IMG/VR virus record: IMGVR_UViG_3300042343_001542
Length of the DNA: 20,000 nt
Reading direction: 5' to 3' (one strand)
DNA from: an uncultured virus (IMG/VR IMGVR_UViG_3300042343_001542)
Taxonomy: Duplodnaviria; Heunggongvirae; Uroviricota; Caudoviricetes
Position numbers and translations under genes: made by a program. Shown here piece by piece: positions 3,893-19,456 of this stretch (its first letter is position 1; the number at the start of each line of letters is the position of its first letter). The notes beneath the pieces were generated by a model. It saw nothing but the letters and a program-made list of their open reading frames with translations, was not told the DNA's origin and made no database searches.

Positions 3893-4573
3893 TTAATTGT
3901 AAGAAGAAGAAGTTTCCAAAGTTACAAAATATACCAAACCCTTATTAGGATCGTTAAATTTCGCAATACCCTTTGATGAAATTTCTACGTTGTAGTTTCC
4001 AGGCATCATTTTAAGGTTTTCAGTCTTAAAAATCAGCTTAAAACTTTTGCCGCCAGAATCAACGCCATTAAGTTCTAAGTTTTGTGTTGATGCAGAATCG
4101 TCGTTTGCATCAAAAGTAAGCAAACTCACTACAGTTCCATCGCTAACCACAGCGACATGAGGGGAACCAAGGACGTTAGCAGAACGAAGAATCCAATTAA
4201 AATCCTCTTCCGAAAACGAAAACTCAACGTCCACCGAAGGCAAGTTGGGTCTTTTGTCTGGAGCTACAACAATCATAGAAGGATCAGTAAAGCGATACTT
4301 GACCTTAGAACGACCACCAACACCCTTTACAACAACATGTTTATCATCAAATTCTAATTCCGCTCCATCTTTGAAAAGAGAAATAACCGAAAGAAAGTTA
4401 TTCAAATCGTAAATTCCAAAATCTTGAGGAATGGTTTCTGATATTTGAGCATCAGCTAGAATATTTTTCTGCGGGGATACCGTAGAAAGTATACTTCCTT
4501 GTTTAAAGAAAATACCAGTATTGATAGACGAAAAGTTCTTCAATACAGTTAAAGTTTCATTAGATAATTTCAT
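3893..4573 (-). CDS. gp45: sliding clamp
   Basis: MKLSNETLTVLKNFSSIN start, FGIYDLNNFL and ENLKMMPGNY motifs. Confidence 0.97.
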   Translation of the reverse strand: MKLSNETLTVLKNFSSINTGIFFKQGSILSTVSPQKNILADAQISETIPQDFGIYDLNNFLSVISLFKDGAELEFDDKHVVVKGVGGRSKVKYRFTDPSMIVVAPDKRPNLPSVDVEFSFSEEDFNWILRSANVLGSPHVAVVSDGTVVSLLTFDANDDSASTQNLELNGVDSGGKSFKLIFKTENLKMMPGNYNVEISSKGIAKFNDPNKGLVYFVTLETSSSYN

Positions 4574-10432: not shown

Positions 10433-12217
10433 TTATTGTGCCATTATTTGTTCTATTTGATTAAAGTCAATAGTTTCATATTGCATAAGCATTTCTGCCA
10501 TAATTTCAACTTTTGACCAATGTTTCTTCAAAATCCTTTCAGCAGACTTATAATTCTTATTGATAATCGCTTGGATCTCTTTTTGGACTAATGTTGTAAT
10601 TTCTTCCATCCCTTGTTTGAACTGAGGACCACCACCAAAACCATTACCTTCATCAACAAATTTAATAGGAGGAAGCTTTTTACTCATACCCCATTCGGTA
10701 ATCATCTTTGTTGCTATAGCCGTCGCTCTCTCAATATCGTTAGAAGCGCCAGTAGTAATAGATTCATAACCTGCATATAACTCTTCTGCTATCCTACCGC
10801 CATATAAAGAAGAGATTTGACTTTCTAATTTAGTTTTAGACATAGAAACAGAATCTCTTTCTGGTAAAAACATAGTAATACCTAACGCTCTTCCTCTAGG
10901 CACAATAGAAACTTTATATATTGGGTCGTGTTCTTTACAGTAGTATCCTACCACTGCATGCCCAGCTTCATGATATGCGGTCATTCGTTTTTCTTCATCA
11001 GACATCGCAAAAGTTTTCCTCTCTACCCCCATTAATACTTTATCTTTTGCCCGTTCAAAATGTTGTGATGATACCTCTTCTGCACCATCCCTAGAAGCGA
11101 AAATTGTTGCTTCGTTAACTAAATTAGCCAATTCTGCCCCAGAAAACCCAGAAGTTCCTCTAGCAATATGTTCTAGATTAACATTTCCGTTTAATGGTAT
11201 ATTCTTTGTGTGTACGTCAAGAATTTGTTTTCTTCCGTTAAGGTCTGGTAAACTAACAGAAATTTGACGATCAAACCTTCCGGGTCTTAATAAGGCTTTG
11301 TCTAAAATGTCTGGTCTATTAGTAGCGGCAATAACTATAATTCTTGAATTGGTACCAAATCCATCCATTTCTACCAATAAAGCGTTAAGCGTTTGATCTC
11401 TTTCGTCGTTGGAAACCATTCCAGCACTTCTAGACTTACCAACAGCATCAATTTCATCTATGAACAGAATAGCTGAGGTATTTTTCTTTAGTTCTGCGAA
11501 CATGTCTCTAACCCTAGAAGAACCAACACCAACAAACATTTCTACAAAATCAGAACCAGAACAATAATAAAAAGGAACACCAGCTTCGTGAGCAACAGCT
11601 TTTGAAAGTAAGGTTTTTCCGGTTCCTGGATCTCCAGTTAATAGAACTCCTTTAGGAACCTTTCCGCCAAGTTTATTGAACTTTTCAGGGTTTTGTAAGA
11701 AATCAATAATTTCTTTTAATTCCTCTTTTGCTTCATCACAACCAGCAACATCAGAAAAAGATACAGAATTATTTTCGTCTTTTTCTAGAAGTTTTGCTTT
11801 AGAGTTACCAATAGAACCTAATCTACCGCCAGATTGCTTACGAGCAATCCAAATCCAAACAGCAATTAACAATAATACCGGAAGAAGACTAAAAAATAAA
11901 TCAACAAAAAAACTCCTCTTAGGAGGGTCAAGAACTAAAACGTCTACATTATGCGCCAACAAATCGTTAATCAATTGTTGATCTTGATCGGGAGCATTTA
12001 CGGTAAACTCTTCTCCAGTTTTTGTAAGTACATGGATATTATTTCCTTGCATTCTTACTTTAAAGATTCCGTCGTGTTTAACGATATTAATAAATCTAGT
12101 ATAAGAAGTAACGTATTCTTCTTTTTCTTTAGGGGATGTAAGGTAATTGTATATTGTCACGGTAGACAATGCTACAGTGAATATAATTAACACTTTCAAT
12201 AAGGTTTGTTTATTCAT
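10433..12217 (-). CDS. ftsH: ATP-dependent zinc metalloprotease FtsH
   Basis: Two N-terminal hydrophobic segments, Walker A GDPGTGKT, pore loop FVEMFVGVG, Walker B IDEID, SRH TNRPDILDKALLRPGRFDR, HEAGH zinc site, TGASND; ATG at 12217 follows a GGAG RBS. Confidence 0.97.
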   Translation of the reverse strand: MNKQTLLKVLIIFTVALSTVTIYNYLTSPKEKEEYVTSYTRFINIVKHDGIFKVRMQGNNIHVLTKTGEEFTVNAPDQDQQLINDLLAHNVDVLVLDPPKRSFFVDLFFSLLPVLLLIAVWIWIARKQSGGRLGSIGNSKAKLLEKDENNSVSFSDVAGCDEAKEELKEIIDFLQNPEKFNKLGGKVPKGVLLTGDPGTGKTLLSKAVAHEAGVPFYYCSGSDFVEMFVGVGSSRVRDMFAELKKNTSAILFIDEIDAVGKSRSAGMVSNDERDQTLNALLVEMDGFGTNSRIIVIAATNRPDILDKALLRPGRFDRQISVSLPDLNGRKQILDVHTKNIPLNGNVNLEHIARGTSGFSGAELANLVNEATIFASRDGAEEVSSQHFERAKDKVLMGVERKTFAMSDEEKRMTAYHEAGHAVVGYYCKEHDPIYKVSIVPRGRALGITMFLPERDSVSMSKTKLESQISSLYGGRIAEELYAGYESITTGASNDIERATAIATKMITEWGMSKKLPPIKFVDEGNGFGGGPQFKQGMEEITTLVQKEIQAIINKNYKSAERILKKHWSKVEIMAEMLMQYETIDFNQIEQIMAQ

Positions 12218-12785
12218 TAGTTTCTCCAAGAGATTGTTCTATAATCTCGTCCATGAAAAGTTCTACACCTTTCGTTTTTTCGCTTAGGGGTTTCTTTTTA
12301 AATTCTGTTTCTTCGTATTTTTCTATAAAGTCATACATATTTTCGTATACTTCTAATTGTTTGATTTCTCCATTACCCAATTCCAATAATTCTCCTTCGT
12401 CTAAAGCTCCAAACGATTCAGTAACTTTATACTTTATATATTGTTGCTTTTTTTCTTTGGCGATTCTCCGAACAAACGCATACCAAGAAATTTGAGTGAA
12501 ATATGCAAAAGGATTTTTAGACTTATCAGGATCAAAATTCTCAAAATACATAAGCATGTTTTCTATTGCATCAGAAACCATTTCTTCTTTGAATGTATAC
12601 GCATAAAAGTTTGGACGTTTTGCCAAATTTTCTGCAATTTTGAGAAAACATTCTCCAATGTAATTAGGAATTTTAGGTTTAGAAGAACCGGAAGCTTTCG
12701 CTAAATCGCAAGACTTCTTATAAGAAATAAGAGCGTCTAAGAAATCCACGTTGTTGATGTAGTTGTTTTTTACTGGTTTGGTCAT
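12210..12785 (-). CDS. gp55: late transcription sigma factor
   Basis: NYINN, YIGECFLKIA, EMVSDAIEN and NPFAYFTQI...AFVRRI.KEKKQ motifs; GGAGG RBS. Confidence 0.96.
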   Translation of the reverse strand: MTKPVKNNYINNVDFLDALISYKKSCDLAKASGSSKPKIPNYIGECFLKIAENLAKRPNFYAYTFKEEMVSDAIENMLMYFENFDPDKSKNPFAYFTQISWYAFVRRIAKEKKQQYIKYKVTESFGALDEGELLELGNGEIKQLEVYENMYDFIEKYEETEFKKKPLSEKTKGVELFMDEIIEQSLGETNE

Positions 12786-15843: not shown

Positions 15844-17196
15844 ATGGTTAGGACGATTGTAGCAGAAACTAAATTGGATTGTGAACATTTATTGGGACAA
15901 TTCTTAGAAGAAAGTCATTTTGACGAAATTATTGACGAGGACTGCAATTTTTTTGCTCCACCCTCTTGTGGTATTGAAGAAAAAACTAATTGCGAAACGA
16001 AAGAATGCAATAAGTGCCCAAAAGGTATTGACGAGGATGGAGTAATTTTCATTCTGAGGAAAAACTTCTTTACAGAAGAAGAACAATTGAACGCCCTTGA
16101 AGGATTAAAAGGTGCGGCAACACAATCCCAAAATAGGGGTATTGCTGCTGGTCCTAGAGGAGAAAAACTTAATAACAGAGAATGGGTGACAGAATATCAA
16201 TTAGAAATTTTAGACTATTTTTCTGACCCTATTCCAAACCTTTTTGGAGAAGATAAAATTGCTGAAATTCAAGCAAACCGTAATCCTGCTAAAGATGAGG
16301 TTGGCACAAGAGGTTATGTTTGGTTGACGTCAAAAACTCAAGCCGAAAATTTTGATTTTGATTCTTGGGTCGATATTACTAGAAACCTTTCTTCTGAAGA
16401 ACAAAAAACCGAAGCGGAAAGAGTTAAGAAGTTTATTTCCGAAACAAATTATGCTGCTCCTGTATTTTCTGGTGTTGCGGGTTATATGGATAGATATCCG
16501 CGTATTGATTGGGGTAGAGCAACCGCTTATACAGCAAATAACCCAGAAAAGTTTAAATTGGCGTTTCCGTTCCTTCAGAAACTTGCAAAGGGGTTTTCTG
16601 AATATTTGCCAAGAAGGTTTAATTTTCAATCAGAATGTGCTAAAAAAATTGATCCGCTGTTTGTCGTCCCAGGCACACCTTTTACAACAATCACTGTAAA
16701 CAAAACCTTTAGAACAGCAGCGCATAGAGATGCTGGAGATCTTCATCAAGGGTTTTCTAACCTTTCCGTATTAACTAATGGAAAGAAGTATTCTGGCGGT
16801 ATGTTGGTCCTTCCAGAATTTAGAGTTGCCGTAAATGTTCGTCCCGGCGACCTACTTTTGATTAACAACCACTTTGGTATTCATGGAAATACCCCTATTG
16901 TATTGGAAGAAGAAGGCGCAGAAAGGTATTCTGTGGTTTGTTATTTCAGAGAAAATATGTTAAAGTTGGGTCCAAAAGAATATGAAGATTATCGTTTTAA
17001 TTTCATTGAAGGTCGCCGTCTAAATAAAGAACATCCAATGTGGCGTCCTCTTTGGAATGGAATTTCTCCTGGCTGGGTCCATTCTGAAGAATGGAAAGAA
17101 TACCTACTAAAACAACCAAATGGAGAAAAGTATCTAAAACGGTTTCATCCAGAATTAATAGATACTTCTAAAAACCTTCTTGAAGATTTCTTTTAA
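15844..17196 (+). CDS. TET/JBP-family 2OG-Fe(II) dioxygenase (5-methylpyrimidine oxidase)
   Basis: FTTITVNKTFRTAAHRDAGD (HxD), LVLPEFRVAV..RPGDLLL, IHGNT (distal His) and RYSVVCYFRE (2OG-binding Arg). Confidence 0.85.
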   Translation: MVRTIVAETKLDCEHLLGQFLEESHFDEIIDEDCNFFAPPSCGIEEKTNCETKECNKCPKGIDEDGVIFILRKNFFTEEEQLNALEGLKGAATQSQNRGIAAGPRGEKLNNREWVTEYQLEILDYFSDPIPNLFGEDKIAEIQANRNPAKDEVGTRGYVWLTSKTQAENFDFDSWVDITRNLSSEEQKTEAERVKKFISETNYAAPVFSGVAGYMDRYPRIDWGRATAYTANNPEKFKLAFPFLQKLAKGFSEYLPRRFNFQSECAKKIDPLFVVPGTPFTTITVNKTFRTAAHRDAGDLHQGFSNLSVLTNGKKYSGGMLVLPEFRVAVNVRPGDLLLINNHFGIHGNTPIVLEEEGAERYSVVCYFRENMLKLGPKEYEDYRFNFIEGRRLNKEHPMWRPLWNGISPGWVHSEEWKEYLLKQPNGEKYLKRFHPELIDTSKNLLEDFF

Positions 17197-17206
17197 AGGA
17201 TATATT

Positions 17207-17869
17207 ATGAGCGAATTTAAATGTGGGGATAGTATCCCAAATATTGATAAAGAAGAATACGATTATTTGTTTTCAAGCCCCCCTTGTTATGAAGACTTGA
17301 AGTTTTTTGGCGTTGATGTAAAAGAACCAGATTCTTATAAAACAAAATTTTTGGATTTGGTCGTCCCTTTGATGAAACCTAAATCTGGAACTGTGACTAT
17401 TTCTTTTACAGGAGCCAGAAGAAATAATTCAAGAATTTTACCAAAGTTTTTATACCTTAACCACTCTTTTATAGAAAACGATTTTTATCTTCGTGACGTA
17501 AAATACTCCAAAAAAACAGATAGTTATAACGCATATTCTTCACAAATTTTGCATATTTACACTTTCCAGAAAAATACAACTAAAGGTACATATAATTTAA
17601 AAAACGACAAATTATATCAAAGATATGGAAAAGACTTTTGGGGACCGTTTGGGAAAGAATTGAAGATTGACGGTGAAGTTGTTGGACAACCGATAGAGAT
17701 AGCAGAATATTGTATTGAAAATTTTACCAATGTCGGAGATACAGTATTTGACCCCTTTGCTGGTATTGGTACTACTTTAGGAGCAGCAAAAAATCTTAAT
17801 AGAGATTATGTTGGATACGAATTAAGAGAAAATATTTGGAAGTTTGGTAAAGAACATTATGGAATATAA
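17207..17869 (+). CDS. beta-class N6-adenine/N4-cytosine methyltransferase-like protein with variant catalytic motif
   Basis: Motif IV-like FSSPPCY precedes motif I VFDPFAGIGTT and YVGYEL; ATG at 17207 follows AAGGA. Confidence 0.8.
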   Translation: MSEFKCGDSIPNIDKEEYDYLFSSPPCYEDLKFFGVDVKEPDSYKTKFLDLVVPLMKPKSGTVTISFTGARRNNSRILPKFLYLNHSFIENDFYLRDVKYSKKTDSYNAYSSQILHIYTFQKNTTKGTYNLKNDKLYQRYGKDFWGPFGKELKIDGEVVGQPIEIAEYCIENFTNVGDTVFDPFAGIGTTLGAAKNLNRDYVGYELRENIWKFGKEHYGI

Positions 17870-18920
17870 AGATTACAGGCTCTTAGAAAACCGTCAAGAA
17901 GGGTTCGATAAGTTTTACGAATTTCACTGCATAACAAACGATTGTAGTCCTGATATAGCTGTTGAGCGTTGGATTGCCGACGATTTAGATTACGATTTTG
18001 AGAAGCGTTGTGTAATGGGATTATTCCACGGTGCGACATACGCTGGACCTTGTGAAACTATGTTTTCTGATAAATTTCCGATTATAAATTCAGAAGTACA
18101 ACCAGTAGTAGATTTTTTCTTTGAGCATAAACAAAGGCTATTATTTTCTCCGGATTGTAAGTATAGAAAAATGGTGTTTGATAAATTTCTATATTCTGTT
18201 GGAGAATCAATTAAACCTTACGGAACGTTAGGTAAGTTTATTTCTTCTTGTTTCGAGTCTGACGATAAATTTAAAAATTACGACACACTAAAGAAAAAAT
18301 GTCAAGATAATTGGTTTCACTGGGGTAGAATGGGTCATTGGTGCTTTTCCGAAGCTATCGCTAGATTTATTGATGCCCCGATATTACCCCCAACAATGGA
18401 ATTTAACGAAGGAAAAAGCCATCGTTCTGGTTGGGCGTTTTGTATTGGTAGAGACGATTTGGTTGGAGATAATGTTTCTAAAGAAGAAGTTGAATACCTG
18501 GAAGAAACTGCAGCAGAATATATTAAAGATAAAACTTATAAAAATGCTGGATTATTTACTTTAGAAACTGCTTGTTGTAATTATAAAAGGCAACATAAAG
18601 GTTCTAGATATGGTGGTTGTTATGTAGACGAACAACAATGGGAAATAAACCATATGAGGAACCTTTGGCCAGAATATAATTGGTTGTGGGATAAGTATAT
18701 GGAAGGTCGTCAAGCGGTTATTCCTTCTTCTTTATTGTTTGAGAATTTTCCACAAACTTTACCAGACGCTTATTGTAAAGATTGGGTTAATTGCCTTAAA
18801 GACCATGGAAGAATTCCAAGAATTGAAGCGTATTTCAATAATGAACCTCAAAAATGGGTTTCTATTAAGAATATGCCGTTTTATAATAATAGTTCGTTTT
18901 CTTTTGAGGATTTTGTATGA
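17859..18920 (+). CDS. amino acid:DNA transferase (aGPT-pyrophosphorylase clade 2-like)
   Basis: WGRMGHWCFSE, KSHRSG..F.IGRDD and FTLETACCNYK...RY...Y.D resemble recalled aGPT-PPlase2 motifs; adjacent to the cognate kinase; ATG at 17859. Confidence 0.75.
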   Translation: MEYKDYRLLENRQEGFDKFYEFHCITNDCSPDIAVERWIADDLDYDFEKRCVMGLFHGATYAGPCETMFSDKFPIINSEVQPVVDFFFEHKQRLLFSPDCKYRKMVFDKFLYSVGESIKPYGTLGKFISSCFESDDKFKNYDTLKKKCQDNWFHWGRMGHWCFSEAIARFIDAPILPPTMEFNEGKSHRSGWAFCIGRDDLVGDNVSKEEVEYLEETAAEYIKDKTYKNAGLFTLETACCNYKRQHKGSRYGGCYVDEQQWEINHMRNLWPEYNWLWDKYMEGRQAVIPSSLLFENFPQTLPDAYCKDWVNCLKDHGRIPRIEAYFNNEPQKWVSIKNMPFYNNSSFSFEDFV

Positions 18921-19456
18921 GAAATATAATTGGAATTTCTGGCGTTCCAGGGACAGGCAAAACCACTTTGATGTGGAAATTTATTGATCAATATAATTGG
19001 ATTGAAACCGAACCAGTAAAATTGGTTCCCGCTCTTTATAATGCAGAATTAGATTTGTATATACTTGGTAAATACGAAAAAGGTGAAGTATTTGCTGGTA
19101 CAGATAGATTATCAATGGCTTGTCAGCCAGCAGTCGTAGAATTTATTTCTAACAATACTTCTAATATTTTATTTGAAGGCGATAGATTAACCAATTTTAA
19201 GTTTTTTGATTTTCTTTTGAGTTTAAAAGAAACCAAGGTAAATTTCGTAGTGTTAACTACAAATAAAAATTTATTGAAGGAAAGATACGATTTTAGAGGT
19301 AGTAATCAATCAGAAACGTTTTTAAAAGGTAGAAATACCAAGATTGATAATATTTTAGCCAATTTTGAATATATGGATTATACTGAAGTATTTCCTAACG
19401 ATAAGTTTGACGATCAAAAAACAATATTAGAATTTATAGAAAAGAATTTAAAATAA
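18917..19456 (+). CDS. P-loop kinase, 5-hydroxymethyluracil-DNA kinase-like
   Basis: Walker A GVPGTGKT, LGKY...FAGTDRLSM, FEGDRL and RGSNQ.E.FLKGR.TK; ATGA overlap with the upstream gene. Confidence 0.8.
   Translation: MRNIIGISGVPGTGKTTLMWKFIDQYNWIETEPVKLVPALYNAELDLYILGKYEKGEVFAGTDRLSMACQPAVVEFISNNTSNILFEGDRLTNFKFFDFLLSLKETKVNFVVLTTNKNLLKERYDFRGSNQSETFLKGRNTKIDNILANFEYMDYTEVFPNDKFDDQKTILEFIEKNLK

Follow-up and report, generated by a model that had tools for sequence, protein, structure and literature searches.

Why does a phage place a relative of DNA amino-methyltransferases, with an extra residue in its catalytic motif, among genes for the hypermodification of thymine, and what would such an enzyme methylate? 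The question arises at a locus of an uncultured virus of the Caudoviricetes (IMG/VR record IMGVR_UViG_3300042343_001542), in a stretch of 20,000 nucleotides that was analysed as a whole and is called the window here. A sequence-only reading of this DNA had suggested that the enzyme may N-methylate an amine appended by the neighbouring amino-acid:DNA transferase (AADT), or alternatively that it marks sites for modification. What that reading observed was confirmed, and its interpretation found support in part. The answer tentatively favoured here is a SAM-dependent tailoring step, in which the protein would N-methylate the side chain that the AADT attaches.

The methylase gene lies between a TET/JBP gene and the AADT gene, as first described, and the coordinates of these and other features are collected in Table 1. 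An AAAGGA Shine-Dalgarno-like stretch stands immediately 5' of the ATG and the homologues likewise begin MSE(F/Y)K, so the start is placed at 17207 and not at an upstream TTG at 17180. The protein matches a single Pfam family, PF01555 (N6_N4_Mtase; E=1.6e-18; bit score 67.9, cut-off 26.7), over residues 42-212, with the motif IV stretch outside the match. This match, together with 49 homologues and a confident AF2 model, marks the gene as real and not a chance open reading frame. The Cys insertion in motif IV had been located exactly, and calling it an insertion is fair when canonical TSPPY relatives are the reference; the DPFAGIG motif for SAM binding is also intact. The compact size (about 220 aa) was read correctly as well, but the argument drawn from it, that there is little room for a target-recognition domain, is weak, given that M1.HpyAVI, a solved adenine methylase among the top structural matches, has a chain of 232 residues.

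The three neighbours, the TET/JBP protein, the PF18751 kinase and the PF18724 AADT, all score above Pfam cut-offs and stand together at one locus, an arrangement that recurs in more than 30 contigs. The AADT ATG overlaps the final 11 nt of the methylase gene, and the AADT and kinase genes share 4 nt, where the stop of the former meets the start of the latter. The AADT is ~25% identical to the aGPT-Pplase2 proteins of ViI-type phages; among 344 records it has no close cultured relative, all being below 60% identity and the best at ~25%.

Table 1. Positions of the cassette genes, methylase motifs and other features named in the text (aa, amino acids; cells are empty where no value is given).
Feature	Sequence	Positions	Strand	Length	Remarks
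TET/JBP-family 5-methylpyrimidine dioxygenase	window	15844-17196	+	450 aa	PF12851, E=1.2e-23; C-terminus ...NLLEDFF
C-terminal tail of TET	window	17173-17193			(S/T)LE(D/A/G)FF-type in T4-like loci
Methylase	window	17207-17869	+	220 aa	ATG 17207 to TAA 17869; PF01555 lineage, beta-class SAM methyltransferase
Motif IV region, S24-P-P-C27-Y28-E29-D30	window	17276-17296	+		family pattern [SG][PTIS L]P[CD][YF]ED
S24-P25-P26-C27-Y28	window	17276-17290	+		translation of the methylase ORF
Motif I, SAM-binding loop D182-P-F-A-G-I-G-T-T	window	17750-17776	+		residues 182-190
E205	window	17819-17821	+		acidic residue beyond the first strand C-terminal to motif I; invariant in both clades
AADT (aGPT-Pplase2-like)	window	17859-18920	+	353 aa	PF18724, E=1.1e-12
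C-terminal tail of AADT	window	18897-18917			SLTKF(L/F), NLESFF or SFEDFV-type in T4-like loci
P-loop kinase, 5-hydroxymethyluracil DNA kinase type	window	18917-19456	+	179 aa	PF18751, E=1.8e-07
gp45	window	3893-4573
FtsH-type AAA+/M41 protease	window	10433-12229	-	598 aa	full-length; Peptidase_M41 1.9e-63, N-terminal FtsH_ext match
TET-AADT-KIN cassette	L177	3688-6589			no methylase; overlapping stops and starts
X protein	L279	2372-3487
X protein	L280	2867-3997
X protein	L281	2725-3936
X protein	L282	2381-3631
X protein	L283	4181-5431
X protein	L293	550-1800
ParB-associated TET	L008	742-1683
ParB-associated TET	L086	800-1753
ParB-associated TET	L279	518-1411
Larger protein beside sister methylase	L181	5642-6970
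Larger protein beside sister methylase	L183	2457-3410
Larger protein beside sister methylase	L185	3739-5001
Larger protein beside sister methylase	L188	2275-3657
Larger protein beside sister methylase	L189	718-1875

The AF2 model of the methylase (pLDDT 89.8, pTM 0.88, from a 27-sequence alignment) has the class I methyltransferase fold with permuted order, motif IV being N-terminal and motif I C-terminal. A strand at residues 20-23 leads directly into the S-P-P-C loop, with residue 28 as the first of a helix. The top Foldseek matches in the PDB are all beta-class DNA amino-methyltransferases (E down to 4.5e-16, TM 0.65-0.74): M1.HpyAVI, TTHA0409, a rotifer N4C methyltransferase, CcrM, M.PvuII and M.RsrI. 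By sequence, the methylase aligns to solved structures in its C-terminal SAM-binding third only, where motif I meets the DPFAGSGTT of solved N4C/N6A methylases. The position of E205 is presumably that which contacts the SAM ribose in class I methyltransferases. Motif order, a DPFxGxGTT loop and a similar size are common to the cassette methylase and the small enzymes M1.HpyAVI (5hfj), TTHA0409 (2zie), rotifer N4CMT (8s9m) and CcrM (6pbd), which share its fold at Foldseek E-values of ~1e-15 to 1e-16. Unlike them, the cassette enzyme carries one more residue, Cys or Asp, ahead of the aromatic of motif IV and a nearly invariant Glu-Asp behind it, and the first Pro of the motif is not conserved in its family. 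The contiguous tetrad (D/N/S)-P-P-(Y/F/W) is thus interrupted, reading S-P-P-C-Y with one extra residue. Among 160 records from cultured phages there is no close relative, all being below 60% identity and the best full-length match at 24-27%. Pfam and NCBIfam searches of the methylase returned PF01555-type DNA methylase models only, with no MnmC2/MnmM-type homology, and there was no Pfam match to PF00145 at E up to 0.01.

A word-indexed search recovered 49 full-length metagenomic homologues at 48-99% identity, along with one fragment and one unrelated canonical enzyme. An exhaustive profile search found 9,093 proteins at E up to 0.001 and 9 at E up to 1e-30, so the tight family is small. Of the 52 family proteins, 40 have Cys at residue 27 and the other 12 have Asp. 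P26, E29 and D30 are kept in 51-52 of the 52, the first Pro of motif IV in 36, and D182, F184, G186 and E205 in every one; E205 is also invariant in 26/26 proteins of a sister clade. Distant canonical relatives read TSPPYDDL, TSPPYNFD, TSPPYHNL or TSPPYAQQ, and when the TSPPYDDL of one such locus (L010) is set against the SSPPCYEDL of the window, a single residue is inserted before the aromatic. The next tier of profile matches consists of proteins of ~200-230 aa that align over their full length and read (S/G)PPD(F/Y)xE; in this sister clade, Asp or Glu fills the inserted position. In a quick IQ-TREE tree (78 rows, SH-aLRT only), branches with SH-aLRT 100 separate the two clades, the family sits on a long branch, and the Cys/Asp swaps within it amount to at least 4-5 changes. 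Ancestrally, the inserted residue is Asp or Glu, with Cys as one interchangeable state. The weight previously placed on the Cys is not sustained by these results, since Asp variants occur even in complete TET-containing cassettes (L270, L271 and L272) and the insertion extends to the sister clade. Some members are longer than the window protein: P0027 (278 aa) has an N-terminal extension with a zinc-ribbon-like CPYCHGW motif, and P0020 and P0023 (284 aa) have a Ser/Thr-rich C-terminal tail.

The exchange of Cys for Asp also bears on whether the protein is a disguised C5-cytosine methyltransferase, in which Cys27, within a PPC resembling the PCQ motif, would make 5mC for the TET. PPC sits where C5-methylases have their catalytic Cys, in the loop behind strand 4. 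However, swaps with Asp in complete cassettes argue against both a covalent nucleophile and a hidden C5-methylase, and the PF00145 match that such an enzyme should give is absent. Additionally, a 26.8-kb record (G005) carries AADT-MT-KIN, where MT is the methylase and KIN the kinase, and no TET or ThyA was found in it. The TETs of kinase/AADT clusters are described as T-dioxygenases in the available passages of a published survey (PMC13229309), and a C5-methylase is highly improbable here.

The gene content of relatives is consistent with this. Neither of two near-complete relatives (G003, 87%; G004, 100% complete at 176,865 bp) has a PF00145 or PF00303 match, controls being positive, and the cassette methylase is the sole PF01555 gene in each. 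The nearest record, G001, matches neither the methylase nor PF00145, but as a 13.4-kb fragment it is uninformative here. A C5-methylase and ThyA are both missing from G003 and G004, so that the TET would act on T, and the methylase would not be there to feed it; most likely, the TET/JBP protein oxidises thymine in DNA to 5-hydroxymethyluracil. The earlier expectation that an enzyme of this type would not make 5mC for the TET agrees with the gene content, with the missing PF00145 match and with the replacement of Cys27. The published account, as far as its available passages go, shows that 5mYOX enzymes of phage clade C1 that are linked to ParB, P-loop kinases and AADTs act on thymine as dioxygenases after replication (PMC13229309). 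Similarly, 5-hydroxymethyl-U DNA kinases and AADTs are described as putting glycine or serine on the activated methyl group, and a PaMx11 acetyltransferase as making 5-AcNmdU, in the accessible part of PMC8989533.

If the methylase does not serve the TET, its constant neighbours are of more interest. Family loci were 4/80 and 3/80 of the loci kept in two retrievals on the methylase side, the remainder being generic PF01555 genes. The AADT is the immediate neighbour in 8/8 family loci (the window, L005, L006, L007, L008, L085, L086 and L087), and the kinase stands beside the pair wherever the contig reaches that far; no close family member away from an AADT was found among the loci retrieved from this side. 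From the AADT side, 47 contigs of this AADT clade were scored by tblastn, and seven truncated ones (L265, L287 and L293-L297) were left out of the count. A methylase lies next to the AADT in 34 of the 40 loci with both flanks visible, although these 34 are not independent events because many contigs are near-identical copies. In the remaining six, the slot is empty or holds an Asp/Asn-hydroxylase-like gene. The co-occurrence check that had been proposed for this gene pair is thus positive from both directions. It may simply be that the cassette is inherited as a block.

Gene order within the cassette is flexible. The majority of loci have TET-MT-AADT-KIN, often with ATGA-type overlaps. In others the order is AADT-MT-KIN (L085/L288 and L289), in one case with the TET further upstream (L272). 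A third arrangement, TET-AADT-KIN, has no methylase (L177/L266). Its AADT is 75% identical to that of the window, and neither a methylase nor an obvious replacement gene was found in the 24-kb record. The L177 cassette is usable as a natural methylase-minus comparison. In a fourth, TET-AADT-X-KIN (L279-L283), X is a protein of 372-417 aa with a C-terminal PF05118 Asp/Asn beta-hydroxylase-like domain, and may hydroxylate the appended amino acid. The slot behaves as a variable tailoring position, which can be empty or filled by a methylase or a hydroxylase-like gene.

The cassette is found both on T4-like contigs and on contigs with ParB and HK97-type terminase/portal genes (L007, L008, L086 and L286). 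In the ParB contigs, ParB lies upstream of the TET, as a ParB-N gene preceding it in L008, L086 and L286 much as in the published ParB-dependent T-dioxygenases (PMC13229309), and the terminase/portal genes lie downstream. Across backbones, identity to the window proteins is 28-40% for the TET, 47-59% for the methylase and 51-67% for the AADT. The pairing of methylase and AADT persists through changes of backbone and gene order and through replacement of the TET. With due caution, the methylase may be viewed as an established though dispensable part of a cassette that hypermodifies thymine after replication. The alternative suggestion that it marks sites for modification gains no support, because cassettes work without the gene in L177/L266 and L279-L283.

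The cassette itself is of a known type. The clade C1 5mYOX cassettes described in the available parts of O'Toole et al. 2026 (PMC13229309) and Lee et al. 2021 (PMC8989533) have the same core of TET/JBP, PF18751 and PF18724 proteins, with or without ParB, which here is 5' of the TET in the three loci named above. The difference is that a PF01555 methyltransferase is inserted beside the AADT, and that the tailoring genes seen in other published cassettes (GATase, GNAT, PLP, rSAM and FAD) do not occur. What is new is a tightly linked, unstudied methylase clade with a non-canonical catalytic loop. The class "N6/N4 methyltransferase only" was counted in 534 of 23,070 5mYOX contigs (2.3%; supplementary file 11 of PMC13229309), and the passages of that paper covered here discuss no function for the co-occurrence. 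More broadly, no function was found assigned to the N6/N4 methylase of these cassettes in the portions of the literature that were accessible.

The sister clade complicates the sequence-only reading. In its nine loci (L181-L189), the genes nearby encode gp46/47-type proteins, a DNA polymerase, gp32, UvsX/RecA, an RNase H-type exonuclease and a peptide deformylase, and also other methylases, including further PF01555-partial proteins and MT-A70. None of the loci has an adjacent AADT, kinase or TET. Their neighbours were also considered as hidden AADTs and rejected (hhalign probability 0.2-0.3%, no ADDT Pfam match even at E up to 1). The presence of an SPPD[FY] insertion in a clade without AADTs indicates that the odd motif predates the cassette and is not an adaptation to hypermodified thymine. 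The main argument of the sequence-only reading is weakened by this, as the insertion precedes recruitment. The sister methylases are often found beside a larger second protein of 318-461 aa, the C-terminal end of which matches only the first half of PF01555, on the motif IV side (Table 1). This suggests methylase islands or paired methylase subunits.

Although the insertion is common to both clades, the cassette family differs from the sister clade at many invariant positions. The sister proteins (P0056-P0090) have their size, D19, Y20, P26, Y44, R71, K80, K99, D143 and the SAM-site residues D182, P183, F184, G186, G188, T189 and E205 in common with the cassette family. They keep D27, D70, W101 and R111, which are lost or replaced in the family; of the sister-invariant residues, the family has lost D70 (in "TDRK"), W101 (in "KIW"), R111 and an aromatic residue at position 157. 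Its near-invariant gains are Y28, E29, D30, G61, T62, R72, Q121, N130 and G141, and further W145-G-P-F, K150, E151, E157 and R207. To judge from these residues, the substrate site appears to have been remodelled and to have become more acidic upon joining the cassette, in what would be an active methyltransferase.

An ordinary phage DNA amino-methyltransferase, which would methylate unmodified DNA to give a second and independent protective layer and travel with other clustered modification genes, is a plausible though less favoured explanation. The fold points in this direction, as every solved relative that was found methylates adenine N6 or cytosine N4. The sister clade has the same insertion and sits among replication genes and methylases like orphan phage methylases do, and the conserved basic residues R71, K80, K99 and K103 are common to it and the family. 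M1.HpyAVI, a real DNA methylase, shows that small size is no bar, and the cassette functions without the gene in L177. The nearest canonical relatives read TSPPY, and m4C would therefore be a more likely product than m6A. However, an ordinary methylase would not be expected to keep its place beside the AADT and kinase through rearrangement, TET replacement and change of backbone. Nor does it account readily for the long, fully supported branch with its many clade-specific invariants and the loss of sister-invariant D70 and W101, or for the failure to find close family members away from an AADT among the retrieved loci. Even if it is a plain m4C or m6A enzyme, the protein defines a methylase clade with an inserted catalytic-loop residue, and its mechanism merits a structure.

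N-methylation of the AADT-added side chain draws on the linkage of methylase, AADT and kinase through rearrangements, on the variable slot, on the intact SAM site and on the clade-specific remodelling. A cautious case can be made that the methylase descends from phage beta-class DNA amino-methyltransferases and is active. It is conceivable, and at present the model to which we lean, that this lineage was retargeted from adenine or cytosine to the AADT-attached amino-acid side chain, with N-methyl-aminoacyl-thymine as the product and the Cys/Asp-Tyr-Glu-Asp loop deprotonating an aliphatic amine. In such a pathway, the TET/JBP protein would convert T in DNA to 5-hydroxymethyl-U, the P-loop kinase would phosphorylate it, and the AADT would swap the phosphate for an amino acid. 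The methyltransferase would then flip out the modified base and methylate the nitrogen of the side chain thus appended. The fold, the intact SAM site, the altered catalytic loop, the clade-specific residue changes and the linkage to AADT and kinase are shown here, whereas we infer in what sequence the steps run, which atom accepts the methyl group and which amino acid is attached. Points already raised count against this model, namely the chemistry of the solved relatives, the insertion that was in place before recruitment, as judged from sister proteins in replication and methylase islands, and the near-identical copies and possible block inheritance behind the 34 loci. A further one is that phage genomes of this kind often have start and stop codons that overlap.

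The chemistry proposed for N-methylation has parallels elsewhere. Some NPPY enzymes, HemK among them, methylate nitrogens that are not part of a base, and in tRNA the aminomethyl group of U34 is the target of MnmC, which converts nm5U to mnm5U. N-methylation could "cap" the amine, as acetylation does in phage PaMx11 or as MnmC does on nm5U in tRNA. The PaMx11 acetyltransferase, as described in the accessible part of PMC8989533, and tRNA MnmC both resemble the proposed last step in acting on a nitrogen that hangs from C5 of a uracil ring. The likeness to these precedents is in the proposed chemistry alone: no homology to them was found for the methylase, which matches Pfam PF01555 only, and its substrate would be DNA. 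Among the literature matches listed, "methylaminomethyl" occurs only in a review of paramagnetic probes, and no title concerns such a base in phage DNA.

The same combination of a conserved SAM site and a non-canonical catalytic loop would also fit another acceptor or donor, for instance if 5-hydroxymethyl-U were O-methylated, if the free amino acid received its methyl group before the AADT transfers it, or if a SAM analogue served as donor. A phage enzyme with a methyltransferase fold that uses carboxy-SAM is reported in the available portion of PMC12783734. Set against this, no search returned a PF01555 relative with such chemistry, and nothing at these loci points at one specific alternative acceptor, which makes this family of explanations unlikely.

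The gene overlap raises the further idea that the protein is a non-catalytic or accessory subunit, which would bind or flip the target base or keep the AADT or kinase tethered to DNA. The methylase overlaps the AADT start codon, it does not keep the classical catalytic tetrad, and in T4-like loci it is without the C-terminal tail seen on TET and AADT. An inert scaffold would, however, have no need of the SAM-binding residues, which are invariant, and the AADT of L177/L266, close as it is to that of the window, works in a cassette without any methylase; such a role is improbable. A complex prediction of AADT, methylase and SAM gave no answer in either direction (score 0.00, mark 0.32).

Thymidine hypermodification is described, in the sources available, as drawing on a modular pool, which comprises kinases, AADTs and acetyltransferases besides enzymes of the PLP, radical-SAM and FAD types. 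The same body of literature, as far as it was accessible, assigns no methyltransferase a role in these pathways. If N-methylation of the side chain is correct, the enzyme would provide the first SAM-dependent tailoring step in thymidine hypermodification and a DNA counterpart of mnm5U formation. Action on the appended group would add a new base to the natural DNA modifications and would mean that an enzyme of the (D/N/S)PPY class can be redirected to a nitrogen on DNA that is not part of a base. The four genes would then also form a compact cassette with which to write a new DNA mark in vivo.

The phage that carries the cassette has a T4-like backbone, with dCMP deaminase, RegA, gp62, gp44, gp45, DNA ligase, gp46/gp47-type genes, UvsW, UvsY and gp23 in the window. 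Searched as assembled contigs, 20 lake and freshwater metagenome runs (X1-X20, 2016-2024), no RNA run being among the listed holders, contain 99-100% of the sampled words of the cassette (15844-19456). The phage is thus recurrent in fresh water, and several relatives come from other aquatic contigs.

In the T4-like loci (the window and L166-L179), the TETs and AADTs end in short tails of the types given in Table 1. These tails resemble the T4 sliding-clamp-binding tail, and the window encodes gp45. They are absent from the methylase and kinase, and from the ParB/terminase-type loci L006, L008, L086 and L087. The TETs of T4-like loci are also longer, at 432-467 aa, with a long N-terminal extension that in the window includes the Cys-rich stretch CGIEEKTNCETKECNKCPKG, whereas ParB-associated TETs have 298-326 aa only. 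It may be that the extension replaces the requirement for ParB. Elsewhere in the window, the gene for the FtsH-type protease is located between the gp47-like and gp55-like genes of the T4-like phage.
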